Virus record (IMG/VR): IMGVR_UViG_3300025608_000073 | Span: 1-28,121 of that record | Strand: one strand, 5' to 3' | Length of the DNA stretch: 28,121 bases | Source of the DNA: a virus | Taxonomy: Duplodnaviria; Caudoviricetes | Notes under the pieces: generated by a model | Told to the model about the DNA's origin: nothing | Database searches by the model: none | The model's input: the letters and a program-made list of their open reading frames with translations, nothing else | Made by a program: the position numbers and the translations under genes | In this document: positions 4,324-24,714 of the stretch, in pieces | Layout of the letters: every line of letters begins with the position of its first letter | Position numbering within the stretch: the stretch's first letter is position 1

Positions 4324-4862
4324 TACCGTAACGCCCTACGTACATCGAAAAACCGGCGTAAGCGAGCGCTCATAGGCTTTACCACACGTGGCGGTTTAGA
4401 TGCCGGCGTCACCTCGACTTTAGGCTCTGGCTCGACAGGCGCGACCTCGTCAACCTCAAAATAAGGCATCGGGTCTACAGTCTGCCCCCAAGTCCGCGTA
4501 GGGTGGCGTACCTCGAAGTGCAGGTGCGGTCCTGTGCTAGCACCAGTATTGCCTACCAGCGCTATCCGCTCCCCTTGTTGGACGCGTGTGCCCTTGAGCA
4601 AGTGCGATGGCTTTGCAAGGTGGTAGTAAACCGTGTAAAGATCGGGCGCGTGCTTGATAATCAGCGTGTACCCGCCAGACCCGCCAGCGCCCTTATGCAC
4701 GATCACACCGTCCGCCGGTGCGGTCAAGGGTGTACCTGTGGGCGCGGCTACGTCTACCCCGTGGTGGAACTTGCGTTTACCCGTGATGGGGTGAACGCGC
4801 CACCCGTAAGGGCTACGAGCGTTTACCGTGTACGGTTCGGGCCAAGGTTCGACCAGTCGCAT
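4323..4862 (-). CDS. Endolysin, M23 metallopeptidase
   Basis: HxGxD (HHGVD) and GxTGxSTGPHLHFE zinc motifs; upstream of the holins. Confidence 0.93.
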   Translation of the reverse strand: MRLVEPWPEPYTVNARSPYGWRVHPITGKRKFHHGVDVAAPTGTPLTAPADGVIVHKGAGGSGGYTLIIKHAPDLYTVYYHLAKPSHLLKGTRVQQGERIALVGNTGASTGPHLHFEVRHPTRTWGQTVDPMPYFEVDEVAPVEPEPKVEVTPASKPPRVVKPMSARLRRFFDVRRALR

Positions 4863-6612: not shown

Positions 6613-7151
6613 TACTCGACCACCTCATCCTCAACAGGCTCGGCAACCCACTGTGCGAACAACGTCAGCTCAGCCGTGAAAGCATAATCCGCCTCATCAG
6701 CATACGAATCACCCGAACCATCCGCTACAGTGTTCCACTCATCAAAAGTGTGACCCTCCAACGCAAACCCGTTAGCGGTCAAAGCGTGCGTGCCAGCATC
6801 AAGCTGGAAAGGCATCGAACCATCCCCACCGTTAGCATCAAAGAACACAAGGGCAGGGTAAGGGTGTGCATCCTTCACAGCCTGCACAGCATCCAACCAA
6901 TCCTGCTCCGTGGCCTCACCACGCTGAAAATCAAAAAACACTGGGTCAGAGTCATCACGGTAAGCTGCCTGCCGGTTAGCCACCACCCTGGCGTGAGCAA
7001 CCTCGTACTCGACCTGAGCCTGCTCAGCCTCCAACTCGGCAAAAGTCGGTTTCGTGCTGTCAGACAACCAAGTAAGGCCACTGTAAGAGTCACCGTCGAG
7101 AGTCCACTCGGCATCGGGGTAACGCTTAGTAAGTATCTGTGCAATATCCAT
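6612..7151 (-). CDS. Tail-fibre assembly-like protein fused to an InlB B-repeat (Listeria-Bacteroides repeat) domain
   Basis: N-terminal half resembles short proteins that follow fibres (YPDAEW...LTW...KPT..EL...R..AY...VK..HPYP); C-terminal FDANGG.G.M...F...G.TF..WNT..DGSG..Y...TLFAQW matches the B-repeat pattern. Confidence 0.75.
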   Translation of the reverse strand: MDIAQILTKRYPDAEWTLDGDSYSGLTWLSDSTKPTFAELEAEQAQVEYEVAHARVVANRQAAYRDDSDPVFFDFQRGEATEQDWLDAVQAVKDAHPYPALVFFDANGGDGSMPFQLDAGTHALTANGFALEGHTFDEWNTVADGSGDSYADEADYAFTAELTLFAQWVAEPVEDEVVE

Positions 7152-8431: not shown

Positions 8432-8443
8432 TTATTGCCTCTC

Positions 8444-10015: not shown

Positions 10016-10863
10016 CCGTGCACCACCTCATAAGCCAAGTTATACTCTACCGTAATCTGAGTATTAGAGTCCGCGTTAGTGCCCGTAATGAGCAAGGCAG
10101 ACGTGCCAGGTGGCAGCGTAAAGAATTTAGGCGACGTAGCAAGAATGTCGTAACGGTTAGCCCCGCCAGCGTCCTCCACGGTAGCCGTCTCGTGGTCCAC
10201 ACGGTACACCTCACCCGACGTCACAGACTCAGTAAACGCCCAACCCTGGCCGTCCAAAGTAACCTGCAAGTTATCCACCGGTCCAGCGACACGGATAACA
10301 GGGTAAACCGGTACGTCGCTGTCATTCTCCACGTTCACAACACCGATAGCCTGAGACGACGAAACACGTAGCTTAGACAACTGTGGCAACAACCCGCGGC
10401 CAGTGTTACCGCTAGTGATAACAAAGCTCTCGCTCTCGGTCGACTGCCAGTACGGGTTAGGTGCCTGAAACGACAACAACGTTTTAGCCCACGTGTACCC
10501 GCCAGTATCGCCACCGTACTCGAGCTCAGCCCCGCCAACATAGTGCAGCTCTAAAAATATGTCGCCGTCGTCACGTAAAGCCGTGAGAGTGGTAGGGCCA
10601 GCCGTATCCTGTGTCAGTTTAGCCAGGCGTCGCAGCTTGTCCTCGACGTCTGTAGCAGACGACCCGAGCACGGTAACCGGCATATCGACATTACGTACAC
10701 CACGACGGCTATACCGGTACACACCGCCATACCTTGCCGACTCGTCAATACGCACAGACGTAGGCGGGATACCGAAACCCACAAGTGTAGGGTTTAGCAC
10801 GTAGCTCGAGTTATCAAAAGTGATAACGTCGCCGTTGGACCCTGTCAGAGTGTAACCGCTCAA
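10012..10863 (-). CDS. Distal tail protein (Dit)
   Basis: Directly after the tape measure gene; F.APNPYW, N..DVPVYP.I.V.GP and FFTLPPG motifs. Confidence 0.82.
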   Translation of the reverse strand: MSGYTLTGSNGDVITFDNSSYVLNPTLVGFGIPPTSVRIDESARYGGVYRYSRRGVRNVDMPVTVLGSSATDVEDKLRRLAKLTQDTAGPTTLTALRDDGDIFLELHYVGGAELEYGGDTGGYTWAKTLLSFQAPNPYWQSTESESFVITSGNTGRGLLPQLSKLRVSSSQAIGVVNVENDSDVPVYPVIRVAGPVDNLQVTLDGQGWAFTESVTSGEVYRVDHETATVEDAGGANRYDILATSPKFFTLPPGTSALLITGTNADSNTQITVEYNLAYEVVHG

Positions 10864-12482
10864 GCCAAAACCCTCGCCCTCGTCATAGCTAGCCGTAGCT
10901 CTTGCTCGGCGTCAAAACTCTTATTAGGTGCCGCGTAATAGTTAACCGTGCTACCGTTACCGCCACCATCAAGGCCGACCATTTTCTCGAACCGATCGAG
11001 CGGAATAACAACCTCGGGCCCAGCCTCACCGATAAGCGCCGTAGTAGGACTGTCAACAAAACCGCCCTCGGCCAACCGTGGCAAGTTTATACTCGAGATT
11101 TCGCTAATATTTACGCCAAAGCTCTTACCGCCGATACCAGGTACCCACGACGGCAAGCTAAAGCTAATACGGTTAAGCGCCCGTATGAGAGAGTTTATCC
11201 CTCGAATAGCGCCATTTACAAAGCCCTCAAAAAGCCCTATCCAACCGTTTATATAAGATTTAAACGCGTCCCCGATAAACTCGATAACAGCGGTAAAAAC
11301 CGTTTTAATATTAGTCCAGGCCTCGGTTACCGCGTCAATAAAAGACTGGAAAACGATACCCATAGTGCGGGTAACAGCCTCCCAGGCAACCCCAAGAGCC
11401 TCGAACACAGTCTGGAAGAACTGGGTCTTAGTTGCCAGGTAGACAATACCGGCCGTCAAAGCCGCGATAGCGACAATAACGATACCTATAGGGTTAGCGG
11501 CTAAAACAAAATTAAGCACAGTCTGTACGGCAGCGTACGCGGCTGTAGCAATACGTTGCGCGTTAAACGCGATCGTCAACACGCCAATAATGCCCGCAAA
11601 AGTAGCAATAGTCGGTATGTTCTCTTGGATAAACCCAAAGAAACCGCGCACAACGTCAAGCAACGGCAACATACCACTCGTCACGTCTGCCAACACCGGC
11701 AACAACACCGAGCCTAAATCTGCCTGCAACTGTGTAACGTTAGCGCTGAGGATGCGCTGGCTGTTAGCCAACCCGTCCGACGTGTTAGCAAAGTCACCAG
11801 CCGTATTAGCGGTCGACTCCATAAGCAAGCCATAACGAGCCTGAGTCTTAATATCCTCGGTCATCTGCTCGCCGACACCGATAAGACCGGCCCGCAAAGC
11901 ATACGCTTTAACCTCAGAGTCGAGCAGGTTTATACCAAACCGTTTTAGAGGCTCAGCCTCACCCGACAGACCCGACTGGAAAACCTGCAAAGCCTCGGAC
12001 ACGTCAATATTAAACACCGAGGCAAAGTCGGCGGCACGCGTCGTAACATCGTCCACAAAGCCGGCAACGTTACCGCCCTCGCCGACAACCCTGCCCGCAA
12101 AAGCTGAGAACCTAACAGATGCGGCGTTAAAGTCAGACTGGGTCACACCGAGCCTAGTGGCGGCGTTTTCGCCCAAAGCCACAACGTCTGCGGTAGCGTC
12201 ACCATAGGCCACAGAGACCGCGTTTAGAGACTCCTCGAGGTCACTAGCTGCACCTACCGAGCTCTTGACAAAACCAGCTACAGCGGCCACACCGAGACCA
12301 GCCGCGATCGGTGTCGCGAACCCCTTTACAGACGCCGCGAACTTGCCCTTAAAACCTTTACCGGCCTTAGCGCCCGTCTCACCGCCAACACTCTCGACAC
12401 CGCCAAGCTCTTTAGCGATAGCCGACTGGAACCCTTTAGCTACGGGTATAAGCGTTACATAAGCGTAGGCTTGCTCTGCCAC
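10860..12482 (-). CDS. Tape measure protein, 540 aa
   Basis: AYVTLIP N-terminus; Ala/Gly-rich helical body; ANPIG.V...I.AL motif; periodic W/F; C-terminal LA.GG...IGEAGPE.VIPL. Confidence 0.93.
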   Translation of the reverse strand: MAEQAYAYVTLIPVAKGFQSAIAKELGGVESVGGETGAKAGKGFKGKFAASVKGFATPIAAGLGVAAVAGFVKSSVGAASDLEESLNAVSVAYGDATADVVALGENAATRLGVTQSDFNAASVRFSAFAGRVVGEGGNVAGFVDDVTTRAADFASVFNIDVSEALQVFQSGLSGEAEPLKRFGINLLDSEVKAYALRAGLIGVGEQMTEDIKTQARYGLLMESTANTAGDFANTSDGLANSQRILSANVTQLQADLGSVLLPVLADVTSGMLPLLDVVRGFFGFIQENIPTIATFAGIIGVLTIAFNAQRIATAAYAAVQTVLNFVLAANPIGIVIVAIAALTAGIVYLATKTQFFQTVFEALGVAWEAVTRTMGIVFQSFIDAVTEAWTNIKTVFTAVIEFIGDAFKSYINGWIGLFEGFVNGAIRGINSLIRALNRISFSLPSWVPGIGGKSFGVNISEISSINLPRLAEGGFVDSPTTALIGEAGPEVVIPLDRFEKMVGLDGGGNGSTVNYYAAPNKSFDAEQELRLAMTRARVLA

Positions 12483-12859
12483 TTAAGGCCTCCATTTCGA
12501 GCGCGTTTTAGAATGTCTTTAGCGTCATCCCTAACCGTGCCTCGACCGCCAGCCTGGTTAGTATTAGCCCAGGGGCGCGGGTACGGTTTCGGTTTCCGTT
12601 TACTGTTTACTTGCGCGTGTAAGTCGTACTGTGCAACCATCGCGGCCCACTCGTATGAGACAGGGTGGTGCCAACCGTTAACGCTCACCTGCAACCAAGA
12701 GGTAGGGTCGCGCAACAAAACAGCGACTAAATACACAACCTCGACCCAGGGGATAGTCTCGCCCAGGTCGTTTAGGCCTAAGTTAAAACGGTATCTAAAG
12801 TCGTAAATAAAAGCGGCTCTGTGGTCGTCGATTAGCTCGACGACCTTGATTATTCCCCC
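12455..12859 (-). CDS. Tail assembly chaperone, frameshifted C-terminal part (gpGT-like)
   Basis: Open frame -1 relative to the chaperone, entered at the slippery site; no convincing start or RBS of its own. Confidence 0.82.
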   Translation of the reverse strand, partial: GGIIKVVELIDDHRAAFIYDFRYRFNLGLNDLGETIPWVEVVYLVAVLLRDPTSWLQVSVNGWHHPVSYEWAAMVAQYDLHAQVNSKRKPKPYPRPWANTNQAGGRGTVRDDAKDILKRARNGGLKWQSKPTLM

Positions 12860-13080
12860 AGTGCTACGCCACCCGTCCAAGCTTTCATATGCTTAGCGAA
12901 CTCGGACACGGGCAAAGTGTCTAAAATCTGTAGTTGCTTGTCTGTAAGAACACCCTCGAGGATAAGCCAAGTCTGCTCAGACTCGGACTCGTGGCGTGCC
13001 TTACGCAATACGCCAGTAGGCATATCGTTAAAGTTGGGTAGCTCTACAGTCTTACCCTTGTGTTCGATTACGTAACTCAT
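12850..13080 (-). CDS. Tail assembly chaperone (gpG-like), 76 aa
   Basis: Between major tail and tape measure genes; GAAAGG RBS before ATG at 13080. Confidence 0.88.
   Translation of the reverse strand: MSYVIEHKGKTVELPNFNDMPTGVLRKARHESESEQTWLILEGVLTDKQLQILDTLPVSEFAKHMKAWTGGVALGE
12853..12859 (-). other. -1 programmed ribosomal frameshift site G GGG GAA
   Basis: CTG GGG GAA TAA at the end of the chaperone; a -1 slip gives GGA ATA ATC AAG..., in frame with the 12455-12880 ORF. Confidence 0.85.
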
Positions 13081-13196
13081 AGCGGCTATACCTTTCGTAG
13101 ATATTATTTTAGCGGCACGGTGGGGAGCGTCGGGGGTGGCAGACACCCCCCACCAGGTTGGGAGCCCTCTAGGCCGCCGCAAGAAACCTAGAGGGC
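13081..13196 (-). promoter_or_regulatory. Structured intergenic leader: two hairpins and a possible pseudoknot
   Basis: Stems at 13164-13196 and 13119-13154; loop GCGGC is complementary to GCCGC at 13112-13116 and 13082-13086. Confidence 0.6.
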
Positions 13197-13202
13197 AAGC
13201 TA

Positions 13203-13736
13203 TTAAGCCTCTAGGTCAGAGAAGAATTTCTCGACCACAGTAGAGCTAGCGTCGGCGTAAGCGGTGATAGTCACCTGGTAGCCGATAGCCTCACCCGAGG
13301 CCAGCGTACGCTCGCCCACCGAGGTAATCTCACCCGAGGGCAAGTAAGTGCGCTCGATCGAGGCACCGTCGATAACGTCAATAACGAACGACTGCCGGCC
13401 ACCGGTCTTACGGGGGTCGATAGAGAACTTACCGCCAACGTTGGTAACGCCGTAGTAAAGCTCCAAAACGGCCTCGTTGGTCTCAATAAACGTCATTTCG
13501 ACCGAGTAGGTGCCTTCAGAGACAACCTCGCGCACGAGGCTACCGTCTTGCCACGAGCGAATCTGGTTAGTGGACTTGTCGATAGTTTCAGCAATACCGT
13601 CCGCGGACACATACCCGAGGTCAATAAAAGCCGCGTCAAGTGCACCGTCTGAGTCGGTTGGTGCCGTAGTACCTGTAGGCGCAACATACACCGCGCCCGT
13701 AGTGGCTACTCTTACGTTGTCAGAGTCTAAAGCCAT
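13203..13736 (-). CDS. Major tail (tube) protein
   Basis: G.V.VAP.GT..P...F.DLGY.S.DG..E...I..WQ...VR pattern of actinophage tail tube proteins. Confidence 0.92.
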   Translation of the reverse strand: MALDSDNVRVATTGAVYVAPTGTTAPTDSDGALDAAFIDLGYVSADGIAETIDKSTNQIRSWQDGSLVREVVSEGTYSVEMTFIETNEAVLELYYGVTNVGGKFSIDPRKTGGRQSFVIDVIDGASIERTYLPSGEITSVGERTLASGEAIGYQVTITAYADASSTVVEKFFSDLEA

Positions 13737-13753
13737 AATATTATTTCCTTTCG

Positions 13754-14137
13754 TTAGAGGTTTGTACCTCTATGGTCAACGGCAAAACGCATAAATCTAC
13801 GTTGGGCCTTTAGGTCGGTCACGTCCTGTATAGAGCTCTCGGGGACCACGTCAACGATAGGGATACCGTCGGGTAAATCATCGAAAACAGCCATAACATT
13901 ACGGGCCAAAGTTTCCGCGTTAGCGTAGGACGTCTCGTACACGTTAACGCCAATACTGTCCGTCATAATCGTTTTAGATCGACGGGTGCCGCCGTCTCGG
14001 CGTAAAATTACTTGCGAGTCTGTATCGTCCGCGAGGATACCCACACGGGTATCGGTGAACCCTAAAGCTGTTAGCTCAGTTGTGATACGGCTAACCAGGT
14101 GGGCCATAATGTCGCTAAAAATAACCGCGTCCGCCAT
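13754..14137 (-). CDS. Tail terminator
   Basis: Directly before the major tail gene; V.LRRDGG...V.V......A..LA..V motif. Confidence 0.78.
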   Translation of the reverse strand: MADAVIFSDIMAHLVSRITTELTALGFTDTRVGILADDTDSQVILRRDGGTRRSKTIMTDSIGVNVYETSYANAETLARNVMAVFDDLPDGIPIVDVVPESSIQDVTDLKAQRRFMRFAVDHRGTNL

Positions 14138-14442
14138 TAGCTCGCCCTCGCTCGTCGGGGTTTGTTAGTTTTTACTTTGTAGCCGCGTTTACCGCCAGCT
14201 AGGTCTAGGGCACGTGACAGGGTGCCAGTGTTGGCCTCGTCAAAGTCAGAGCCTCGAACAACTTTAGCTCGAGCTCGACGACCATTACGTAACACCTGCA
14301 AGTCGCTACCTGGTACTGCCGACTGTACACGAGCCATACGCTTACGTAGTTGCGAGGCAACCTCTTTGGACCTGAGCAACTCGCCCATACCCTTAAAGTT
14401 TAGTTTCACCTCACCGCCACCGCCAGGTATTTTACTAGCCAC
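14137..14442 (-). CDS. Neck/tail-completion protein (HK97 gp10-like position), 101 aa
   Basis: GTG at 14442 overlaps the upstream gene; VKLN..G..ELLRS.EV...L and L.RAL motifs. Confidence 0.68.
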   Translation of the reverse strand: MASKIPGGGGEVKLNFKGMGELLRSKEVASQLRKRMARVQSAVPGSDLQVLRNGRRARAKVVRGSDFDEANTGTLSRALDLAGGKRGYKVKTNKPRRARAS

Positions 14443-14758
14443 GGTCGATCTGCCTCTGCAAGTTAACAACCGCGCCAGGGCTCCACGAGCCCAAACCATC
14501 GCGCCAGTCGAAAGCCTCACCGTCGACCTCGTAAGTCTTACCTCTAATAGTAAAAGTGTCGTCGTCTTGGACGTCGTGCCCAGTCGGTAAATAGATAGTG
14601 AGACCGTCGGTTACCACGATCTGGTCGGCGTCAAAGTTAGTACCCGACACCCGAGCCGAAACAATAGCGTTAACGGTCGACGTAGTAGTAGTAAATACTG
14701 GTTGGCCGTAACTATCGACCGAGGTCGAACTTCGTCGGGTTTGGGTAATAGACTCCAT
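14435..14758 (-). CDS. Head-to-tail stopper
   Basis: D.YG.P, LTIYLP...DV...D...IRG..YEV.G....W motifs; synteny. Confidence 0.82.
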   Translation of the reverse strand: MESITQTRRSSTSVDSYGQPVFTTTTSTVNAIVSARVSGTNFDADQIVVTDGLTIYLPTGHDVQDDDTFTIRGKTYEVDGEAFDWRDGLGSWSPGAVVNLQRQIDRG

Positions 14759-15317
14759 AGTTACCGTTTCCTAATGTCGACGCGGACCTAAAAGTTTTCT
14801 CGCGGTAGTAGTTAGCTACCTCAATGTCGCTAGGGCTCATAAGCACTTGGCGGCCAACAGCCCAGTTAGCGTAAGACTGCGAGAACGGCCCCACGCTCTG
14901 CTGCTGGATACCAGCCGCCGCGTCGGCGGGGATAAGCAAAGTACGCACAACCATACCGGCAACAACCGCAACAACGTCGTCGGGGATAGTGTCGGAGCCG
15001 TGGTCATAATTGACAATTACAGGGCTATAAGAGCCCAGCTCATAGAGAGACTGGAAACCGTCGTAAGTGTAATCAAGCTCGACACCGTCAATATCTACAA
15101 CGCTGTTTATCTCAATTACAGGGCGTTGCACCAGACGCACAATACCGTCGCGAGGGAACAGTCTAACCGTAGACTCGGATACCTCGAACTTTTGTACGGC
15201 ACGCTGCACAAACATAGCTGAGGCGTCCGAGAGCCAAGCCGTAGCCTGTGCGGTCTCGCCCGCGGTCAAAGACCGACCAATACGTGCCTCGACGTCGGCA
15301 ATAGTAGCTAGAGCCAA
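14712..15317 (-). CDS. Head-to-tail adaptor
   Basis: LAT..DV.AR.GR.L....A..L.DAS...V..VV..MV.R...Q.SVGPFS.SY; follows the capsid gene; TTG start with GAGAGG RBS. Confidence 0.85.
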   Translation of the reverse strand: MALATIADVEARIGRSLTAGETAQATAWLSDASAMFVQRAVQKFEVSESTVRLFPRDGIVRLVQRPVIEINSVVDIDGVELDYTYDGFQSLYELGSYSPVIVNYDHGSDTIPDDVVAVVAGMVVRTLLIPADAAAGIQQQSVGPFSQSYANWAVGRQVLMSPSDIEVANYYREKTFRSASTLGNGNYGVYYPNPTKFDLGR

Positions 15318-15352
15318 TTTTTAGCCTCTCGTAAAAAACTTTGTGCGGCGTA

Positions 15353-15380
15353 GAGGGGACGACCGTAAGGCCGCCCCCTC
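15353..15380 (-). terminator. Strong hairpin after the major capsid gene (terminator or mRNA stabiliser)
   Basis: GAGGGGGCGGCC-TTAC-GGTCGTCCCCTC: 12-bp stem; the T-tract is displaced about 14 nt downstream. Confidence 0.6.
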
Positions 15381-15400
15381 ATAGCAGTTACCTACTGGTA

Positions 15401-16213
15401 TTAGCCAGAGTAGTAGCTGTAAACAGCGTCGCTCTTGAGCACCTTAGCGCCGTACACGTTCAGACCGCGAACAATGTCCGAGAACTTCGACGGGTTGCGC
15501 AGTGACTCGAGGCTCTGAATCTGGTTGACAAACGCAACCATAGAGCCGTGGTATGCCAAAGCTCCAACGCTCTGCGAGTCGGTGGCGACCAGCGCGGTCT
15601 CGACGACGGTAAAGCCGTAGAGGCGTCCGATAACACCGTTGCGCAGCTCCGAGTCGTTTCCAGCTACAGAGACGTCGTCCAGACCCTGAATGAGCAGGTC
15701 GGCAAAGTCGGGCGACACGGCCAGGTAGCGGTTAGACGCGGGAACCTTTGCGTTACCCATAGCGGTACGCATAGCGCGGACACCGGTAAGCGCCTCGGCG
15801 GCGGTGTCTACGACAATGCTGCCAGAGTTGGAGTTGGTTGCACCTGCGAGCATCTGGTCGAGGACGTAGTTTTCTGCGTCCTCAGCGAGCGCACGACCGG
15901 CAGAGTCAACCCAGGGGCCAAACTCGCTCGAAGCCTGCACCTTGTCGACGTCGTCAACGTTAACCGAGAAAGCCTTTTCCTGGTCAATGAGCAACTGTAC
16001 CTCGGTGTCGGCAAGAGCCTCGGCCGTGATGGTACGGGTCGCGCTGTAGTCAGCGATCGTAGGGGTGGTTGCGTTAATAATGTGGACTTTGTTACCAGCG
16101 GTAACGTCGCCCGTAAACGCGTTGTCAAGGGTGGGGATAACCACCTGGTTGGCGATAAACGACTGGGTAACCCCTGCCGCCCACACCTCTGGGATAAATT
16201 GGTCAATAGCCAT
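15401..16213 (-). CDS. Major capsid protein, 270 aa
   Basis: FIPEVWA...G..V.I...L.IDQ.K.F...VDD.D..Q...VP...R...V.P...G.IG...GF.V...D.VRGL.VYG.K pattern; follows the scaffold; GAAAGG RBS. Confidence 0.93.
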   Translation of the reverse strand: MAIDQFIPEVWAAGVTQSFIANQVVIPTLDNAFTGDVTAGNKVHIINATTPTIADYSATRTITAEALADTEVQLLIDQEKAFSVNVDDVDKVQASSEFGPWVDSAGRALAEDAENYVLDQMLAGATNSNSGSIVVDTAAEALTGVRAMRTAMGNAKVPASNRYLAVSPDFADLLIQGLDDVSVAGNDSELRNGVIGRLYGFTVVETALVATDSQSVGALAYHGSMVAFVNQIQSLESLRNPSKFSDIVRGLNVYGAKVLKSDAVYSYYSG

Positions 16214-16233
16214 TTTTTAGCTACCTTTCTTGT

Positions 16234-16836
16234 TTAAGATTTCCCCATAAGAGAATCTAGGCGACCGTCGTTACGGGCTCTTAAAATCTCGTCTGGGGTC
16301 ATTCCGTTTAACTCGTCTCGCGAGCGAATCTGTGCGAGCGAATTCTTGTTACCTCGGGCACCTTGCCCCAAGTCTGGTTTAGGCGCGTCGAGGTTTGTGC
16401 TGTGAGCCTCCACCCACGTCGCAATAGCCTCGCTGTCAATGTCGCCAGAGTCGTCGATAAACGCGGTCTTATCGAACGCCAGGATCGAGTCGCCCTCAAG
16501 CGCCCTACCCTTAAGCGAACTTTTAAGCTCTGCCTCTACCAATTTCTCTGCGAACTCCAACCTGACCGCCTGCCTAGTATCCTCTTTAGCCTGCTCCACG
16601 GCACGCTCTTGCTCGCTTAGCTGTGACTGGCGAATAGCCTCAAGCTCAGTATTAGCCTGGTCGAACTGTTCGCGTTTACGGTTAAGCTCTTTGAGCTCTG
16701 CGCGTTGCTTATGCAGAGTTTTTACTAGGGGGTGGTCTTGCGGATACTCCTCTAGGTTAACGTCTGTGCTGGCTGTCTCAGCCTCTACAACGTCGCCCTC
16801 GGGTTTATTTTCTATTGTAGTTTCGTCTTGCGACAT
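16234..16836 (-). CDS. Capsid scaffolding protein, 200 aa
   Basis: Acidic N-terminus, coiled coil with LSEQERA, D...F.D..G..D motif and C-terminal GRLD.L; ATG at 16836 with GAAAGG RBS. Confidence 0.85.
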   Translation of the reverse strand: MSQDETTIENKPEGDVVEAETASTDVNLEEYPQDHPLVKTLHKQRAELKELNRKREQFDQANTELEAIRQSQLSEQERAVEQAKEDTRQAVRLEFAEKLVEAELKSSLKGRALEGDSILAFDKTAFIDDSGDIDSEAIATWVEAHSTNLDAPKPDLGQGARGNKNSLAQIRSRDELNGMTPDEILRARNDGRLDSLMGKS

Positions 16837-16842
16837 AGGGGT

Positions 16843-16882
16843 TACCTTTCCGTCTCGGAATAGATAGGACTCGTCTCGAGTC
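16843..16882 (-). promoter_or_regulatory. Tandem GAGAC-loop hairpins over the scaffold RBS
   Basis: GACTC-GAGAC-GAGTC and TATCT-A-TTCC-GAGAC-GGAA-AGGTA. Confidence 0.7.
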
Positions 16883-16907
16883 ATAACCGACCAGGGTGGC
16901 CGGAAAA

Positions 16908-17756
16908 TTAAATATCGTTAGGCCCAGTAAAAGCCTGGTCGCGCCAGGTCAAAGTGGGCCCATACTCGCCGTGCTGTCGCGTAGCGATAATCTCGGTAAA
17001 GTCTGCCAAACGCACGTCGTCGTCGTACTGCACAAACTTGCCTATAGCGGCGTCGCGTGCCTCTCGGTCTGATACGCCGAGCTGGCTTTGTAAAGCCTCG
17101 TGGATACTGTCTAGACCGCCCTGGTCGATAACCTGCCCAGGGTCAAAGTCGCCGTATATAGCCTCCTCGCCACAATCACAACCAGGGTGTATCGGCTTTA
17201 GGTTGTCGCGGGTGTACCTCTGGGTCGAAGCGATAGCGCACAGAGCGCAGTTTTCCGAGCCAGTCAACACACGACGGTAACCGACAATATTGCTATTACC
17301 TTGCCGTTGCTTTAAACCAGCCTGTCGGCTAGCAAGTTGTACGTTAGTTTCTGCGATCGACGACGCTCTAGCCGCGCCCTGCTCAATAGCGGTAGTAAAA
17401 AGAGTATTAGCAGACAAAGCCGTATAAACCTGCACAAACGGGCGACGGTACACCTCTTGAGCGCTAGGCCCGTTACGCAATACCTCATCGGTTAAATCAC
17501 TGGGTCTAGTTGGCTCTGGGGTGAAAGACTCACCGTTAGCCTTAGCCACTTGTTGGTAATAAGCGGCCTGCAAGTTAGCCGCTTGTTGCTTAAACCCGTC
17601 GATCTGCGGACCAACAACACTTATATAGCGCTCTAAATCGTCATCGCGCCACGAGCCAAGCTGTCTAAAAGCATTACCGGCAAGAGCGCCCGCACCCCTA
17701 ACCAACCTAGTATTAAGTCGGTTATAGCCGTCTCTAACCTCGGCTAACGTAACCAT
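16908..17756 (-). CDS. MuF-like minor capsid/capsid maturation protein
   Basis: Between portal and scaffold; GYRRV.....C.LC...S...H..CDC motif. Confidence 0.8.
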   Translation of the reverse strand: MVTLAEVRDGYNRLNTRLVRGAGALAGNAFRQLGSWRDDDLERYISVVGPQIDGFKQQAANLQAAYYQQVAKANGESFTPEPTRPSDLTDEVLRNGPSAQEVYRRPFVQVYTALSANTLFTTAIEQGAARASSIAETNVQLASRQAGLKQRQGNSNIVGYRRVLTGSENCALCAIASTQRYTRDNLKPIHPGCDCGEEAIYGDFDPGQVIDQGGLDSIHEALQSQLGVSDREARDAAIGKFVQYDDDVRLADFTEIIATRQHGEYGPTLTWRDQAFTGPNDI

Positions 17757-19096
17757 TACGCCTCAATAGTTGGCGGTGGTGTCTCGTCTGGTGTCCCCAA
17801 CAATGCCTCGGTAAGCAACGTCTCGCCGGCCCGTTGCACTTCCATTTCGTCAATTTCCGCCGGGGAGAACTGACCAATAAGAGACATACGCGACCTAAAC
17901 GGAATATCTTGAAACTTGCTATTAGCGTCGGCACGCTCGGCCATACTGTAACGCTCGGCGGGTTTCCACAACGGCTCAAGGTCGAGCAACGTAGCGCGGA
18001 CGTCATCGCCCAGCCACCTAAAGACAAGCGACATAACGCGAGACCAGCCAGGGCTAACCCGTGCAATACGGTCCTCGGTCTTAAACACCAGACCCTCACG
18101 TGCCAACTGTGCGCCCTCTGCGGACCCGTTAGCGCCCTCGGGGGTAAAGTAGTGCATAGGGGTACGGGTGACAGCCGCAAAGTCCTGTATATCGGCTCGT
18201 ACGGCGTTTAGGATACCCGTAATCTCAGCCTGCCCCAGCTCGGTAACATCGGCACCCTCGGGAATCATCCACAAAGAGCCAGCCGACGACTCGAAAATAC
18301 CCGAGTAGTCGATCTCGTTACCGTCGCTGTCGTGCGTCGGAAAATCACCCTTTAGGACGCGTTGCCTAAACGCCTGCGTTGTCGCAATAACCAAACGTTG
18401 CAAAATCATATGGTTAACACGGTCGATAATGTCCAGGTAAGGCTCGTACTCGCCCTTTTCGTCCGCGTTAGCGAACTTCACCACGGGCACCTCGCCCAAC
18501 GGGTTAGCCATCTCCTCTACGAGCTGGTACTTGTCGGGGTCGTAAATATTGTCTTGCCCAGACTTTACAAACACCTCGACCGAGTCGGGGCCATACCAGT
18601 AGAGGTAATGCTCGCCGCCCTCGTTAAAAACCTTGATAGCCTCAATAACCTTAAACGGCTCTGTAGGCGACGTACGGCCGTAAACCTGCCTGGGGTCCTC
18701 CACGGTCACTACGGGGTATTCTGAGCCCGCAGGATAGCCCACAAGGGCGTACGCGGTACCAAAACGCAGTAGGTACGAGTGCAAGTCGGCAGCGCCAAAG
18801 TCCAGATTACTAGCTTTCCACAAACGGCGAGCCTCACGGTCCCCGTTTTCGTCATCATCGGCACCAGTACGGAAACCGCCGATAACCATACGCTCACGTA
18901 CGGCAGAAACCGACAACTGGGCCAGGTTTAGACGTGCTTTACGCTGAAACCGTCGGTAAGCGCGACTCTGACCGTCCGCACTCTCGGGTAGCGGCGCGTC
19001 ACCATCGTAATAACGCTCGAGTAGGTTGTAGTGCGCTTGCTTACGAGCCAAAGCCTTAAGTAAACCTTGTTGTGTGCTAGAGAGCTGTGTAGCCAT
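17756..19096 (-). CDS. Portal protein (SPP1 gp6-like)
   Basis: L..YY.G..P.P, N.A.L.V....ER, NPLGEVPVV.F.N...GE.E......D.N motifs; follows TerL. Confidence 0.93.
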   Translation of the reverse strand: MATQLSSTQQGLLKALARKQAHYNLLERYYDGDAPLPESADGQSRAYRRFQRKARLNLAQLSVSAVRERMVIGGFRTGADDDENGDREARRLWKASNLDFGAADLHSYLLRFGTAYALVGYPAGSEYPVVTVEDPRQVYGRTSPTEPFKVIEAIKVFNEGGEHYLYWYGPDSVEVFVKSGQDNIYDPDKYQLVEEMANPLGEVPVVKFANADEKGEYEPYLDIIDRVNHMILQRLVIATTQAFRQRVLKGDFPTHDSDGNEIDYSGIFESSAGSLWMIPEGADVTELGQAEITGILNAVRADIQDFAAVTRTPMHYFTPEGANGSAEGAQLAREGLVFKTEDRIARVSPGWSRVMSLVFRWLGDDVRATLLDLEPLWKPAERYSMAERADANSKFQDIPFRSRMSLIGQFSPAEIDEMEVQRAGETLLTEALLGTPDETPPPTIEA

Positions 19097-19108
19097 ATAA
19101 AGAATGTC

Positions 19109-20770
19109 CTAACGTATGCGACGCGGGATAAAAGTGGATCGTGTGGCCTCACCTTTCGAGAGGGCTACAAGCCGTGCCTGGTAAGCCAACAAAGCACTAA
19201 CGGCCGCGTCGATTTTGTCCCTACTTTCGGGGTGGGACTTTGCAATAGTTATACCCGAGCGCCCAATACGGCGACGAGCATTTAAAACGTGACGAGTCAA
19301 AGCTAAAGAGCCGTCGTGTGTTAGCTCTTTATCCAAAATAGCGGTACTAAACTGTTCCACCGCTCTAACGACAAGGTAAGACCTGTTACCAGTCATCCAC
19401 CACGCTATCGGGTTGGACTGGCTAGCCTTAGCTTTAAGTTTCTTACCGTATGCGGCCTCCCACTTAGCTATATAGCTCTCCCAGCGGGCGGGGTCCGCGA
19501 ACATACCTACAACGTTGTAAGTCTCAAAAGCTTTAGCCACCTCATAGTCGACCTCGTCGACAGGTACAGCCCAGTCGTCACCCGACGGGCCGTTAGGTTG
19601 CTCCCACACTTTAATCTCGAACAGGTGCCCATCGGAAACACGGCAACCAATAAGAGCGGTGGCGTCTGTGACACCTCGAGCACGTTTACGCGAACCGTCA
19701 AAACCTAAAGTAACGTCCTCACCAGGTTTAACCGGTTTGTCAACATAGCAAGCGTTCCACTCGGGCGCTGTAACCCAGGCGTCGCGTGCACTCGTAGGCT
19801 GATTAAAGTAGTACCGGCGCGAGTCCGACGGGTCGTTACGCGGATCGTAAAACTCTGACAGGATACGGTCAACATCCATAATTTCAGCGAACGGCCCGTA
19901 AGCCTCAGCGATACCAGCGCGTACCTGGTCCTCGTCTGTTAAATCTATGTCCGCGTCTGCCTCGCGGTGGTCAAAGAGTAACCGTTGCCTTTTGGTCTTA
20001 CCCTCGTTTATGAGCTTTGCCAGCTCGTGGGTCTCCTCAGCTACCGACTTCTCGCCAGGCAGATACATAGTAGACGTCTCGAGAGACCACGGCTCAGCGA
20101 TTTTACGTTTTGCGAGGTTACGCCTGACCGTCTGGTACATACGCTTAAGCTCGGGACGGTTATACAAGTGGGTCTCGTCAAAGACCACCATAGTCTCTTT
20201 GCCACCGTCTTTAGAGCTATTGCTCGCAGTCGACGGCACAATTTCGCCACCACCGGGCAAGAAAATACGGGTTAAACCAGCCGCGTCGCGCGGCAACCCC
20301 TCACTTAGAACACCCTCAGTGAGATTAAAATAAACGTTGTCGTACGTGTTGCCAGCCTGCCCCTCCTCTGTCGCCAAACAGCGGATAACAGGGGCGGTGA
20401 CCTCCACACCTACCGGCTCACCCGCCGCATACGTGTAAACAAGCCCGTTACGCTCGTACGTCTCCCCGCCCCTAGCGTAATGGCTAAACCGTGCCGGCCC
20501 CATCGCCTCGAACAGCACAATAAAACCGGCGAGCTCAGACTTAGCGCGACCCTTAGCCCTCGACATAAAAGCCGAGTCGTACAGGCGTCGACCGTCACCG
20601 TCCAAAGCGTAAACATCCACCACAAACGCGGTAAACTCGTCATCGAGCGCGACAGGTTGCCCCTGCACATCGCCAGGGCCGTGGACACAAAAAGTCTCTA
20701 TCCACCACACCGCAACCCAACCCAAAGAGCGGTTACGATCGTGCGAGTCGGCCCTAATCAGTTCACGCAT
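19109..20770 (-). CDS. terL: Terminase large subunit
   Basis: Walker A-like RAKGRAKS, Walker B VVFDETH, nuclease LGFDGS...DATAL and KIDAA motifs. Confidence 0.96.
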   Translation of the reverse strand: MRELIRADSHDRNRSLGWVAVWWIETFCVHGPGDVQGQPVALDDEFTAFVVDVYALDGDGRRLYDSAFMSRAKGRAKSELAGFIVLFEAMGPARFSHYARGGETYERNGLVYTYAAGEPVGVEVTAPVIRCLATEEGQAGNTYDNVYFNLTEGVLSEGLPRDAAGLTRIFLPGGGEIVPSTASNSSKDGGKETMVVFDETHLYNRPELKRMYQTVRRNLAKRKIAEPWSLETSTMYLPGEKSVAEETHELAKLINEGKTKRQRLLFDHREADADIDLTDEDQVRAGIAEAYGPFAEIMDVDRILSEFYDPRNDPSDSRRYYFNQPTSARDAWVTAPEWNACYVDKPVKPGEDVTLGFDGSRKRARGVTDATALIGCRVSDGHLFEIKVWEQPNGPSGDDWAVPVDEVDYEVAKAFETYNVVGMFADPARWESYIAKWEAAYGKKLKAKASQSNPIAWWMTGNRSYLVVRAVEQFSTAILDKELTHDGSLALTRHVLNARRRIGRSGITIAKSHPESRDKIDAAVSALLAYQARLVALSKGEATRSTFIPRRIR

Positions 20771-21221
20771 TTAAGAGCCGTGCCCTGCGGTCGTCGAGCT
20801 CGTCGACAGGCGCAAGAGTAACCGACTCAGCCTCGGGCTCCACGTAACGTATCCGCAAGTCTCTACGAGCGTCTACAGTAGTCCCGATAATTTTCTCGCG
20901 CTGCCTAAGCTCAGACATAGCCGATACAACACCGGTAACAGCCTGGGCGTGGATAAGCGCAGTGTCTAAGCAAAAAGCCCAATCGCTAGGCGACCATAAG
21001 ACACAGTGCGGCATAGTAGTGACCGACTCATACCACGTAACCGTCTGCTCAGGCATAGGGAAAATAGTAGACTCGCCGGCCTTGTTTATAATCTCTCGCA
21101 CCTCGGGTAAAGCCGGTTTCTCACCGGAATAAGGCACGTTAACTACATCCGTCCAGTCAACCGTAGGCTTATGCCTCGTAACTGTCGGACGATCACTGGG
21201 TTTACGTCCAGCCATAACCAT
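20763..21221 (-). CDS. terS: Terminase small subunit
   Basis: Overlaps the TerL start; W......PH...W...DW....DTA..H...ELR.RE...G.T...R..LRI motif of actinophage TerS. Confidence 0.85.
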   Translation of the reverse strand: MVMAGRKPSDRPTVTRHKPTVDWTDVVNVPYSGEKPALPEVREIINKAGESTIFPMPEQTVTWYESVTTMPHCVLWSPSDWAFCLDTALIHAQAVTGVVSAMSELRQREKIIGTTVDARRDLRIRYVEPEAESVTLAPVDELDDRRARLLNA

Positions 21222-21224
21222 AGT

Positions 21225-21261
21225 GTTACCTCGTCTCGAGAATAACGGCGTATCTCACGCC
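21225..21261 (-). promoter_or_regulatory. Tandem GAGAY-loop hairpins over the TerS RBS
   Basis: GGCGT-GAGAT-ACGCC and GTTAT-T-CTC-GAGAC-GAG-GTAAC. Confidence 0.68.
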
Positions 21262-21869
21262 TAGCGTTGCAAAGCCCAATCTAAATACAAAACGTCGAGC
21301 TTGCTCTTACGGTACGGCTTGCCAGTTACCGTAATAAACCTACCGGCGGGATAAACCTCGACCTTGAGACTACCCGCCTTAAACCTGTAACCCTTAGCGA
21401 GGTCACCATAACCCCACACGTGCAACCCGCGACCCGACGGCGAAAACTCGCTATACGTCTCACCGAGACCCTCGACAAACTTAGCCGCCTCAGCGTCAAC
21501 AACACCGCCAGTAACACAGTCGTCTAAATCGACACACACAATACCGTCGCCATTTAGCACAAACCCGTAACCGTCGCCCTTGTCACAATTAGCAACCTCA
21601 GCGTAACTAGCCCACGAGTGCTCATCGTGCACCGAGACACCCCACCCGCCAATCGCGATCGGTCGTTTCGCTCGGTGTCGAACCCAGCGAGACCGCGACC
21701 GCAACTCGGCCGGTATCGGGTTGGCCCTAGCCTGCGCCTCAGCGACATAAGCCGGCGACCGTCTACGATCCCTGTGCGCCTTCACCCTGCACCCGCTACC
21801 ACAATACTGCGGCTTGCGGCCACGCTTAGGCTGCACTAAATCCATTCCACACACACGGCAAAAAGTCAT
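21261..21869 (-). CDS. Zn-finger plus AEP primase/polymerase (NrS-1-like Prim-Pol domain), 202 aa
   Basis: CxxC...YCxxxC finger, then IP.EL....RWV, G.GFVL...VCVDLDDC (DxD), E.SPSG.GLH and VEVY...RFITVTG AEP motifs. Confidence 0.88.
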   Translation of the reverse strand: MTFCRVCGMDLVQPKRGRKPQYCGSGCRVKAHRDRRRSPAYVAEAQARANPIPAELRSRSRWVRHRAKRPIAIGGWGVSVHDEHSWASYAEVANCDKGDGYGFVLNGDGIVCVDLDDCVTGGVVDAEAAKFVEGLGETYSEFSPSGRGLHVWGYGDLAKGYRFKAGSLKVEVYPAGRFITVTGKPYRKSKLDVLYLDWALQR

Positions 21870-21875
21870 AACCAG

Positions 21876-21904
21876 ACTCTACCAGGTGTAACGATAAGCG
21901 GCAA
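21876..21904 (-). promoter_or_regulatory. Leaderless sigma-A promoter for the Zn-finger-AEP gene
   Basis: TTGCCG-N17-TAGAGT-N6-ATG; no Shine-Dalgarno sequence. Confidence 0.65.
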
Positions 21905-22019: not shown

Positions 22020-22093
22020 CGTATTGCACGTACAGCGAACTACAGCACCTCTCCGCCTGCCCCTATGGGGGGGGAGGGGGTGGGTCCCCCTAC
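22020..22093. other. Putative cos/packaging region
   Basis: Longest non-coding gap, directly after the packaging-type HNH gene and upstream of the terminase; contains G/C homopolymer runs. Confidence 0.5.
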
Positions 22094-22399
22094 CTAGATT
22101 AAACCTGGATGGGTACCCTTAGGTCGTGTCTCGGTTATTACTGGCTTACGGGCTCTTGCCTCTGCTGCCTCTTGCGCTGTCTTACGCTTATGGTGCCAGG
22201 GGCACAATAGTCTTAGGTTATTTAGGTCGTGGTTTCCGCCGGCCGCCAGGTTTACTATATGGTCCACGTCCGTACCTTTGTGCGTACAGCCGTCCTCGTG
22301 TTGACATATCCCTACGGCTCTCTGTATGACTAGGGCACGGGTCTGTTTCCAGCCTGGGGGGTCTTTAGGTCTCTTGCTCGAGTCCCAGTTATGTGCCAT
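22094..22399 (-). CDS. HNH endonuclease (terminase-associated, HK97 gp74-like)
   Basis: W...R..V..R....C...C.....VDHI......H...NL..LC..HH..KT. Confidence 0.92.
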   Translation of the reverse strand: MAHNWDSSKRPKDPPGWKQTRALVIQRAVGICQHEDGCTHKGTDVDHIVNLAAGGNHDLNNLRLLCPWHHKRKTAQEAAEARARKPVITETRPKGTHPGLI

Positions 22400-22413
22400 A
22401 GGGGGTGTCGTGT

Positions 22414-22731
22414 TTACTCGTTAGGTAGGCGTACCGAGTTGGCCCAACGTTGCCCAGGGTCTCCACCCCAGGCGTCCCACGCTACACGGCCAGGGCTCGG
22501 GTAACCATCCTCGCCACGGTAGAAACCCTCGGCGTCTTTGTTACCTGCCTGCCTAGCAAAGAATGACCGCATACGTGCGATCGTGTCCTCTGATACGTCA
22601 CGGCCGTTAGCGAGTTGCACGGCACGGGCTCTACCTACATCGGTAAAACCTGAGCCGGCGTATCCTTCAGCTAACCAGATTAGAGCTCTTTTGGCGGCGT
22701 CTTGTACGTCTTGTGGTGGGGTGTAGGGCAT
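22414..22731 (-). CDS. Conserved phage hypothetical protein, 105 aa (PSPGRVAWDAWGGD motif)
   Basis: TAATG start; well-formed globular sequence with G..RA.QLA...TI.RM.SFFAR...AW..WGG..G..W. Confidence 0.82.
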   Translation of the reverse strand: MPYTPPQDVQDAAKRALIWLAEGYAGSGFTDVGRARAVQLANGRDVSEDTIARMRSFFARQAGNKDAEGFYRGEDGYPSPGRVAWDAWGGDPGQRWANSVRLPNE

Positions 22732-22844
22732 TAGCTACAGTCGTCTAACGTTTGGTCCCACGTGCAATAGCCCGTACAACAGCAACGCTCACCGCATACA
22801 CAAAGATTAGAGACGTTATCCCCAGTGGTACAGCAATCAGCCAT
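22731..22844 (-). CDS. Possible overlapping 37-aa Cys-rich peptide (9 Cys)
   Basis: GGGAG RBS; TAATG-coupled to the next gene; may be a frame shadow of the membrane peptide. Confidence 0.35.
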   Translation of the reverse strand: MADCCTTGDNVSNLCVCGERCCCTGYCTWDQTLDDCS

Positions 22845-22867
22845 CCGATAATCTCCCACGCGCTCAT
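22745..22867 (-). CDS. 40-aa single-pass membrane peptide (MSAWEIIGWLIAVPLG...)
   Basis: ATG abuts the upstream TAA; GGGGAGG RBS; hydrophobic helix with a basic tail. Confidence 0.65.
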   Translation of the reverse strand: MSAWEIIGWLIAVPLGITSLIFVYAVSVAVVRAIARGTKR

Positions 22868-23101
22868 TTAGTAGACCTCCCCGTATGCGGACTTGCCCCA
22901 CTCGAGTAACCCTGTTACCGCATATAGTGGGGTTGTGACTGAGCGGTACACGCCAATATCTGCCGTCTCGCCGTCGTCATCCATAGTACCAGCCGAGGCC
23001 ACGATAACCCAGTCGCGGACAAAGTCTACGGGGTCTAGAGCCTCGTCTATTACGTGCTCTGTTATTGCCCGTGCGAGCTCGTCGTACGTCTCAGCGGACA
23101 T
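22868..23101 (-). CDS. Hypothetical acidic protein, 77 aa
   Basis: GAAAGG RBS; L..AI..H...V.DWV.V...P.Y...GLL pattern seen in small actinophage late genes. Confidence 0.8.
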   Translation of the reverse strand: MSAETYDELARAITEHVIDEALDPVDFVRDWVIVASAGTMDDDGETADIGVYRSVTTPLYAVTGLLEWGKSAYGEVY

Positions 23102-23120
23102 AATAAAAACCTTTCGATAA

Positions 23121-23202
23121 CTCGGCTTAGTCTCTGTTCCATTGGCTTACGCCTCGACCGCCATAAGGTAGTCGTATATTTACAGTGTGGACTATTGCCG
23201 AG
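23121..23202 (-). ncRNA. Candidate structured RNA (multi-stem junction)
   Basis: Nested pairings CTCGGC/GCCGAG, TAGTC/GACTA and CTGT/ACAG enclose the hairpins CGACTACC-TTAT-GGCGGTCG and GGC-GTAA-GCC; intergenic. Confidence 0.5.
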
Positions 23203-23218
23203 ACTGTCTAAGGTAATT

Positions 23219-23956
23219 CTATATATGACGGTACTGGTTTGTGCGAGTCGAGGACTTGCTACGCTGCCATTTTTTGCACGACTGGCACTGGTACCGCGGG
23301 TAACTGCCGGTTGACGTGTAAGACCGACCCCTTACTGTGAGGTGTTCCGATCCGCACACAATACAAGACTCGGGTTTTCCGTTGTATATGGCGGCGTTAG
23401 GGTGCTGGTTATCCATCCACGGCTTAAACTTTTCGTACAAGTCAACCAAGAGGTTTACGTCTTGTATCTGGTACTTTTTCATCTCGGCCCAAGCTTTTTT
23501 ATTGCCAGCCATACACTCGGTCCAAAGCGGAAAGCCAGAGTGTTTTACCTTTTCCCCTACGCCTAGCGCTTTAGCGACGTAGTCAAGTTTGTTACTTGGG
23601 AACCTAAAGTTTTTTTTATTGGTAGCCATTAGGTCTAAATCTTTAGTGGGAGAAGGTGGCTGTAAACCGTTTTCGATAAACTCTCTGTTTATGTGTTTGT
23701 GGTCGAAGGCTCTAGAGTTCCAACCGGAAATATAGTCTGCCTCATCCATAAGCCTGTGTAGCTCTTTTAGCATTGCCTCTTTGCCATCGTGGTGGATAGA
23801 CTTAAATATAACCTTTTTAGAATCAGACCAGCGAGCGCCAAAACACATCACCTCGGTTGGCTTTACAATCTGCGCCAAAGAAATATTCTGATTCAACAAA
23901 CCCCAAACCCAAACCAGATTAGGGGTAGTCTCTAGGTCAAAAAAGAGTATACGCAT
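23219..23956 (-). CDS. RNase H-fold DEDD 3'-5' exonuclease (DnaQ/YprB-like) with C-terminal Zn ribbon
   Basis: FFDLET, WN...FD, D.DL, SNKLDY and Y..QDV motifs; CxxC...CxxC tail. Confidence 0.9.
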   Translation of the reverse strand: MRILFFDLETTPNLVWVWGLLNQNISLAQIVKPTEVMCFGARWSDSKKVIFKSIHHDGKEAMLKELHRLMDEADYISGWNSRAFDHKHINREFIENGLQPPSPTKDLDLMATNKKNFRFPSNKLDYVAKALGVGEKVKHSGFPLWTECMAGNKKAWAEMKKYQIQDVNLLVDLYEKFKPWMDNQHPNAAIYNGKPESCIVCGSEHLTVRGRSYTSTGSYPRYQCQSCKKWQRSKSSTRTNQYRHI

Positions 23957-24714
23957 TAGGGCCTCGTTTCGTTTTTGGGCACACTAATAGAGCGCACCCC
24001 CAGTGTAGCATACTTCTCGAACATTTGTTCGGGTTTCTCATCCTCGGCGTGTCGCAATTCCTCGGTATGGTCAATCTCGTACCTTAGCTGCCTCATCCCG
24101 CGGCCGTGGAGCCACACAGCGAGGCACGCGATACAACGAGCTTTAGTGTTTTCGAGCGAGCGGTACTGGACTACACGAGACTCGATTAGGATAGCCCGAC
24201 GGTACACGCCTTGCTCGTCTGTGGCGTGGCTGGCACCGCAACGAGGGCAGGGTGCCGTAATCTCTAACACGGTTGGCGGGTTTAGTTTTGACTCGATCCC
24301 GTACACCATAGACGCAATTTTTTTAGTTTTCTCTGCGATTACCGAGTCGGAAACTTTACGGCTTGTCGCTTGTTGTGCGAACTGTATATACCATTGTCGC
24401 AAGTTGCTCTCGGGGTCGGGAAACGGTTTAGCGTCCGACACCTCGCTATACAGTCGACGTATCTGCCGGCTGAGAGCCTCGTAATAGTCCAGGGCGTCCG
24501 CGTCGATAACGTTACGCTCTGAGGCCAGCCCCGCACCTTGCACGCTAGAGCCGAGGCTTGAGTGCACGAGCTCGCGTAACTGTTTTAGCAAAGCGTCGTG
24601 TTGTATATACACTTTTTGCTCTGTGCCGTCGTCGTCCTCTACGATCACCGCAGACTTGTGCGGTTGGCTTAGCCGGTCGACTAGGTTTAGCAGGTCGTCG
24701 TTAGAAGGGTGCAC
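23956..24714 (-). CDS. Zn-ribbon protein at the early/late boundary (possible late regulator)
   Basis: VD.L..P...LL.QLR...APCP.CG...C.AC...W; last early gene before a promoter. Confidence 0.65.
   Translation of the reverse strand: MHPSNDDLLNLVDRLSQPHKSAVIVEDDDGTEQKVYIQHDALLKQLRELVHSSLGSSVQGAGLASERNVIDADALDYYEALSRQIRRLYSEVSDAKPFPDPESNLRQWYIQFAQQATSRKVSDSVIAEKTKKIASMVYGIESKLNPPTVLEITAPCPRCGASHATDEQGVYRRAILIESRVVQYRSLENTKARCIACLAVWLHGRGMRQLRYEIDHTEELRHAEDEKPEQMFEKYATLGVRSISVPKNETRP
24002..24010 (-). promoter_or_regulatory. Extended -10 promoter element (putative late promoter)
   Basis: TG-C-TACACT, about 45 nt upstream of the exonuclease ATG. Confidence 0.62.
24017..24032. promoter_or_regulatory. 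LexA-binding SOS box (Actinobacteria/Gram-positive type)
   Basis: TCGAAC-ATTT-GTTCGG versus the consensus TCGAAC-N4-GTTCGA; perfect CGAACA-NN-TGTTCG palindrome. Confidence 0.8.

Follow-up and report, generated by a model that had tools for sequence, protein, structure and literature searches.

A conserved LexA-type box over a predicted promoter in the last early gene of a probably actinobacterial tailed phage

The phage and its genome

The window (the whole stretch of 28,121 nt that was analysed) comes from a tailed phage whose recognisable genes all lie on the minus strand. The early genes encode WhiB, a YqaJ exonuclease, an annealing protein, RusA, an HNH protein, an O-like initiator, an HTH_17 protein, a putative SSB-like protein (assigned from reading of the sequence, with no family match) and g10. 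These are followed by a DnaQ-like exonuclease, small genes, an HNH endonuclease, a primpol-like gene, terS, terL, the portal, head and tail genes, an M23 endolysin and a holin, and a hairpin-T-run terminator ends the late block. Terminase, portal, tail tube, tape measure and Dit are all present; hence the phage is not of the tectivirus type. The features considered below are:

24017..24032, no strand assigned: putative LexA-type operator TCGAAC-N4-GTTCGG, TCGAACATTTGTTCGG (match to the actinobacterial consensus)
24002..24010, minus strand: extended -10, TG-C-TACACT, TGCTACACT (TAnnnT with fixed T, A and final T)
23956..24714, minus strand: g10, the last early gene, 252 aa, DUF7341-like, with two CxxC pairs (PF24030 weak; Atlas DUF7341 0.95)
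23219..23956, minus strand: DnaQ-like 3'-5' exonuclease, the first gene after the promoter (phrog_403, E 7.5e-85; PF13482)
23105..23218, minus strand: structured RNA-like element with two hairpins enclosed by a long stem (window copy, z -3.65)
22094..23101, minus strand: g12-g14 and HNH endonuclease, closing the unit that certainly lies in the path of the boxed promoter (gene order)
22040..22055, with runs up to 22090, minus strand: strongly conserved motif that follows G/C runs in the HNH-primpol interval (11-locus alignment)
21876..21904, minus strand: P2, TTGCCG-17 nt-TAGAGT, without LexA box (9 of 9 loci examined)
3667..21869, minus strand: late block of primpol-like gene, terS, terL, portal, head, tail, endolysin (M23) and holin (profile matches)

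Positions 1-539 recur at 27583-28121 with 14 mismatches, which implies a circle of 27,582 bp; the repeat is probably due to two strain variants joined at an assembly overlap. Considering this end repeat and the longest contigs among the relatives, which measure 27-30.5 kb, the genome looks complete, despite the CheckV description of the record as linear and 42% complete.

Gordonia and Streptomyces phages account for the 25 best matches of the terminase and, together with the WhiB gene, they make an actinobacterium the likely host. A MAG labelled Clostridia, which gave a single distant locus (L107) and whose LexA region is AT-rich and Firmicutes-like, was not accepted as the host.

The phage had originally been described as having no recognisable repressor or integrase, and all searches bearing on this were empty: no tyrosine or serine integrase (serine recombinases included) was found by domain search in the window and four larger relatives, and neither ParA (PF13614) nor the S24 peptidase domain of cleavable repressors was found in the five records searched, the window included. 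Of the marks of a phage-plasmid, an own initiator (O-like) without integrase is seen, and ParA is not.

The boxed promoter

The box lies 6 nt from the extended -10 and covers approximately -37 to -22 of the predicted promoter, i.e. the spacer/-35 region, with transcription predicted to start near 23995. It falls within the last 26 codons of ORF 24714-23956 (252 aa), in the frame P-E-Q-M-F-E ... A-T-L, and the ATG of the exonuclease follows right after this ORF at 23956. The position of the box, its spacing and its place inside the end of the last early gene, as given in the original prediction, were thus reproduced.

The window box has one mismatch to TCGAAC-N4-GTTCGA, the consensus of the likely, actinobacterial type of host, and the family consensus has none. 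The proposed match to the actinobacterial SOS box agrees with the published Streptomyces venezuelae LexA consensus, tCGAAC-N4-GNNCGa (PMC9380542). The Mycobacterium tuberculosis recA box ends in GTTCGG, as the window box does (PMC8607333, Table 1), and the half-site TCGAACA is given as the actinobacterial form (PMC2248561).

The exact sequence CGAAC-N4-GTTCG occurs once in the window. The expected chance counts in 28 kb are 0.03 for this 10-base core and 0.06 for at most one mismatch in 12, so that the value of 0.002 given earlier for the 12 bases is too low for a site that has one mismatch. The chance figure alone is only suggestive, and it is the conservation in relatives that makes the observation convincing. 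A sigma-70 scan of the window returned 7 promoters, as against 7.5 in shuffled sequences, and the boxed promoter was not among them; the scan is blind to extended -10 sites that have no -35. Upstream of the first early gene of the window, the best match to the box has 6 mismatches.

Conservation of the element as DNA

The homologues of g10 comprise 87 close ones (44-100% identity) and one distant one. A peptide footprint of the box, [VIFLP][EK]xx[F..][EDG], is kept in the tails of 66 of the 87, and the rest of the tail is variable. Taken with the position of the box in the reading frame, the footprint could suggest a chance match to LexA sites that has been retained through protein constraint on the g10 tail. 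The nucleotide sequences make this practically untenable.

Core peptides outside the box, chosen from an alignment of 36 of the 88 proteins, were used to fetch 68 loci (L040-L107); there is overlap among the sets, and L056 is the contig of the window itself. Loci without an anchor peptide (eight) were left out, among them L058, which has a perfect box; L043 and L091 stop short of the region needed for the frame test. The site is present in the same frame in 49 of the 60 anchored loci, where it has no mismatch to the 12-base consensus in 17, one in 24, two in 3, three in 1 and four in 4. This in-frame conservation reaches down to approximately 45% identity in g10, and the family consensus equals the actinobacterial consensus at all 12 positions. 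Among the 35 distinct in-frame sequences (window included), the spacing between box and TAnnnT is constant in all, and so are the T, the A and the last T of TAnnnT, while the residues encoded there differ (T, R, K, I; G, D, A, V, S).

Codon usage was compared over 17 clusters formed at 90% identity. The Glu codon in the box is GAA in 16 of 16 clusters, as against 66 of 256 (26%) in the gene core, and the Phe codon is TTC in 14 of 14, as against 27 of 56. Six conserved Glu columns and two conserved Phe columns, used as controls, show mixed codons. The Fisher p values are 1.5e-9 for GAA and 2e-4 for TTC; they are uncorrected for kinship, but the clusters span the tree. Loss of the palindrome through synonymous changes in close relatives, which had been named as evidence against the proposal, was therefore not observed.

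The element is also conserved outside the frame. In clade B (seven loci), g10 ends earlier and the extended -10 lies further downstream. With it comes a pair of weaker boxes that are separated by 31 nt, have 2-4 mismatches and lie largely outside the ORF; one of the pair overlaps the -10. In this survey of clade B and upstream regions, 2 of 38 loci were short of upstream DNA and 9 were duplicates, and these were dropped. The conservation of box and -10 independently of the reading frame, which had been called for, thus held. The g10 tail that carries the promoter (residues 226-252) is predicted to be disordered (pLDDT <50). Since the synonymous sites are fixed, the residues over the -10 vary and the tail appears disordered, the box and the extended -10 are a real element that is kept by selection as DNA.

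The protein that binds the box

A viral collection was scanned for the box followed at 6 nt by an extended -10, and 25 records were found: 4 of this family, 9 of an unrelated portal group, 10 of a group of low-GC phages and 2 isolated records, in one of which the unit precedes scaffold and capsid genes. The portal group (L125, L126, L128-L130, L132, L133, L141, L146) consists of small, phage-like elements of about 11-18 kb with a perfect box, and 6 nt separate the -10 from the start of the portal gene. In four portal-group records no integrase was found, and a search for g10 in four records of the group, which are incomplete, also found none (two positive controls were detected). The low-GC group (L123, L124, L127, L131, L136, L138, L139, L142, L143, L145) has a perfect box within conserved intergenic surroundings. 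An earlier scan of the collection with a 5-nt spacer gave one unrelated match. When the spacing was left free, 54 records in 20 groups were obtained, with 6 nt in 5 of the 20 groups and 9 nt in 6; a 6-nt spacer is therefore common, and not unique, among viral box/-10 pairs.

Because the box/-10 unit occurs in unrelated elements where g10 was not found, a host factor is favoured as the binder, and host LexA would be the simplest candidate. Judged from the sequence, it is very likely that LexA binds the window box, and we would be surprised if the promoter at the extended -10 were inactive.

It may be asked whether the palindrome could be the site of a phage protein, either g10 as a Q- or RinA-like regulator or the HTH_17 protein, and resemble a LexA box only outwardly. 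The gene g10 does occupy the position, directly before a late-facing promoter, where lambda Q and RinA-type regulators sit, and its product has two CxxC pairs. Moreover, the family can encode a LexA-type DNA-binding domain of its own: in L104, where the box is absent, a gene for a 78-aa protein with this domain (L104:197-433; PF01726, E 2.5e-16; TIGR00498 positions 3-71) overlaps the end of g10, directly before the -10. Four such proteins were found, one of them on a 27.6-kb contig. No longer homologues of the L104 protein were returned, and a search of viral loci was likewise empty. The placement of L104 in the tree is unreliable, as it rests on 28% of the columns. A different imperfect palindrome is present in L104 at the position where the box would be.

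On the other side, the family consensus agrees with the host-type consensus at every one of the 12 positions, the box is present in elements where g10 was not found, and a search of the window together with 16 related virus records gave no PF01726 match. Che8 gp100, a distant homologue of g10, likewise precedes an exonuclease, yet no box is present where its gene ends. A binding site for a phage protein is therefore considered very unlikely. As regards g10 itself, Foldseek gave no fold match at E <= 0.001, a sequence search of the PDB gave no match under E 0.09, and comparison with VIA gave a best Z of 7.1 to a helical bundle, with residues 148-252 barely covered.

Extent of the control

It had been proposed that the box lies on the late promoter of the phage. 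The boxed promoter does face the genes from exonuclease to holin, and the order exonuclease-g12-g14-HNH-primpol-terS-terL behind it is conserved in relatives; it may not be the sole late promoter, considering the presence of P2 in all nine loci examined and the decay of the box in some relatives (see below).

Between the exonuclease and g12 lies the structured element of about 110 nt, in which 4 of 9 consensus pairs are changed on both sides. It has no match in Rfam at gathering scores, is found in relatives (e.g. L042:11491-11620, L049:10734-10863) and remains part of the leader in those without the exonuclease. It could aid read-through, and is a candidate for an antitermination or translational control RNA. 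The motif region at 22040-22055 is likely to be the cos site or genome end, judging from its G/C runs and alignment.

P2 has a perfect sigma-A-type geometry (TTGnnn-17 nt-TAnnnT-6 nt-ATG), and a leaderless start is predicted for the primpol-like gene (zinc-finger/primpol-like). The P2 spacer contains a conserved CGTTAC/GTAACG, in either orientation, a possible autoregulatory site. As P2 precedes primpol, terS and terL, expression of the packaging and structure genes could be independent of the boxed promoter. Two conserved small hairpins without T run precede terS (21221-21261, minus strand), the second partly over the ribosome site, and on account of these transcripts from P2 may or may not extend into the terminase genes.

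A narrower role for LexA is conceivable on these grounds. LexA would gate only the right-end unit (DnaQ-like exonuclease, g12-g14 and HNH), with P2 firing the packaging, structure and lysis genes, so that SOS would time nuclease expression and help with cos cleavage and not the whole late programme. The cos-like motif between HNH and primpol suits such a role, as does the conservation of P2. The same is suggested by the two lineages without the exonuclease: in one clade (four loci) the box has degenerated (4 mismatches) and the -10 is kept, and the distant L107 has neither exonuclease nor box. These cases, however, represent two events only, and among exonuclease homologues from phages outside the family, none of 25 distinct ones has a box (at most 2 mismatches, within 200 nt upstream). 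Furthermore, the box/-10 unit heads the portal gene in unrelated elements, and the stretch from the boxed promoter to terS showed no conserved hairpin followed by a T run. The narrower role is thus regarded as rather unlikely.

The preferred reading, to which we assign a probability of about 0.5, is that the palindrome is a host LexA operator that represses a predicted promoter at the early/late boundary, as a checkpoint for the exonuclease, HNH and much of the virion expression until the SOS response, which the phage would probably set off by its own replication and recombination. The unboxed early promoter would drive WhiB, the YqaJ exonuclease, the annealing protein, RusA, the O-like initiator, the SSB-like protein and g10, while LexA on the box would occlude the spacer/-35 of the promoter in the g10 tail. 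Single-stranded DNA from phage replication or recombination, or damage from outside, would then activate RecA, and LexA would be cleaved. The boxed promoter would thereby be released, with read-through possibly needing g10 or the structured RNA, much as gp6 is required at P3 of GIL01 in addition to the release of LexA. It is moderately probable that transcripts read through past the cos-like junction into terS-to-holin, making virion output dependent on the boxed promoter. The single box of the window, as compared with the tandem boxes at P3 of phage GIL01, counts against the preferred reading.

A further possibility is that LexA holds the late genes off during a non-integrated carrier or phage-plasmid state, as in GIL01, until damage comes from outside. 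The absent integrase and the O-like initiator are compatible with such a state, and so is the arrangement in some relatives. A second box (1 mismatch) lies just upstream of the early-gene ribosome site in three groups (L047/L081; L049 with G010/G011; L089), and small divergent HTH genes lie beside the early promoter in L047 (2474-2848), L049 (1754-2005) and L053 (3853-4071). In the window, however, the early promoter is unboxed and no divergent HTH gene, ParA or S24 repressor was found, so that neither a limit on early replication nor a partition function is recognisable. A carrier state is therefore unlikely for this phage, and the non-integrated replicon offered by the original prediction as one of two options is weak for the window. 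With the early promoter unboxed and no repressor visible, a lytic checkpoint is preferred over a silent replicon; given the rest of the preferred reading, a lytic timer is fairly probable.

In metatranscriptome X1, contigs 95-99% like the window are found within 3579-23401 and none over the early genes, and one of them bridges the end of the exonuclease and g12. These data consist of contigs only, with no strand, start or level, and possibly represent DNA; they were given no weight.

Comparison with known systems

Direct LexA control is reportedly established for CTXphi and for the tum gene of phage 186. To our knowledge, the late promoters controlled by lambda Q and by RinA are not LexA-boxed. 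In layout, the window nevertheless resembles lambda Q/pR' and RinA/terS, with recombination genes, RusA, initiator, last early gene and late promoter in succession (for RinA, PMC3152322), but no clear link in fold or sequence was found between g10 and Q, RinA or ArpU.

The closest parallel is GIL01, a linear-plasmid tectivirus of Bacillus thuringiensis, where LexA-gp7 represses P3 at tandem boxes and gp6 is also needed (PMC6182141). GIL01 does not integrate, has no cleavable repressor of its own and carries LexA boxes on the promoter of its virion and lysis genes; the window likewise has a LexA-type box at a predicted promoter that faces such genes, and no recognisable integrase or cleavable repressor. 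GIL01 differs in the tandem arrangement at P3, in having boxes at the early promoter P1 and in the co-repressor gp7 (PMC6182141). The window, unlike GIL01, represents a tailed phage with one in-gene box, an unboxed early promoter and P2 before the terminase genes.

SaPIs, unlike the autonomous phage of the window, are satellites that integrate and carry a repressor of their own, Stl. They nonetheless offer a likeness in the direct LexA control, here predicted, of a packaging operon of a mobile element: SaPI operon I consists of six genes, including terS and the capsid-size genes, and is LexA-regulated (PMC3152322). In S. venezuelae, LexA is bound upstream of the genes of a prophage cluster (the tail-fibre gene vnz_21525 and others), which are strongly induced by mitomycin C (PMC9380542). 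An actinobacterial-type LexA site thus lies upstream of phage structural genes there as is predicted here, but that cluster is chromosomal, its boxes are weaker and it is not analysed as a phage regulatory design (PMC9380542). Lytic deferment, proposed for phages with host CtrA or Spo0A sites, likewise has a host regulator delay the lytic programme without true lysogeny; it involves other regulators and hosts, and the pathway is itself hypothetical (PMC9437464).

Elsewhere, GIL01 and N15 are listed in PMC11652158, the Streptomyces tectiviruses that were scanned by others had no LexA box (PMC6950372), and Samy and CyranoPS look SOS-independent (PMC11302927; bioRxiv 10.64898/2026.10.29.762952). 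No paper describing a LexA box at the late promoter of a tailed actinophage was found in a search of mostly open literature. The novelty claimed at the outset was nevertheless overstated, as P3 of GIL01 is already a LexA-repressed late promoter (PMC6182141) and prophage LexA targets have been published for S. venezuelae (PMC9380542). LexA control of a late promoter is a published principle.

If the preferred reading is true, phages classed as strictly lytic for want of integrase and repressor can still be wired to the DNA-damage status of the host. UV or antibiotic stress would then set burst timing in environmental actinobacteria, and prediction of lifestyle from gene content would miss it.

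Regulatory variants within the family

The family offers a compact case (one 16-bp site at one promoter) together with a natural series of regulatory rewiring. Two suggestions are made tentatively and jointly, and both are doubtful at present. One is that in this widespread family of tailed actinophages, which has no integrase, repressor or partition genes, the SOS repressor of the host is the sole recognisable switch from early to late expression, with the phage's own replication provoking RecA/LexA cleavage as a clock. The other is that the switch may be seen evolving, its forms being the single in-gene box, tandem boxes outside the gene, an extra early-gene box and replacement by a captured LexA DNA-binding domain.

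The LexA domain of the L104 lineage is a parallel, in an unrelated virus lineage, to gp6 of GIL01, which is likewise a phage LexA DNA-binding-domain protein; gp6 acts at P3 (PMC6182141), and the L104 protein may act at the corresponding promoter. Unlike GIL01, the LexA-domain gene is present here only in a sub-lineage without the box.

In L047, an A-rich repeated tract is present about 200-520 nt past the holin, between the terminator and the early genes. It contains several AAAAAAATGTT-like units, which resemble the weak boxes of clade B.
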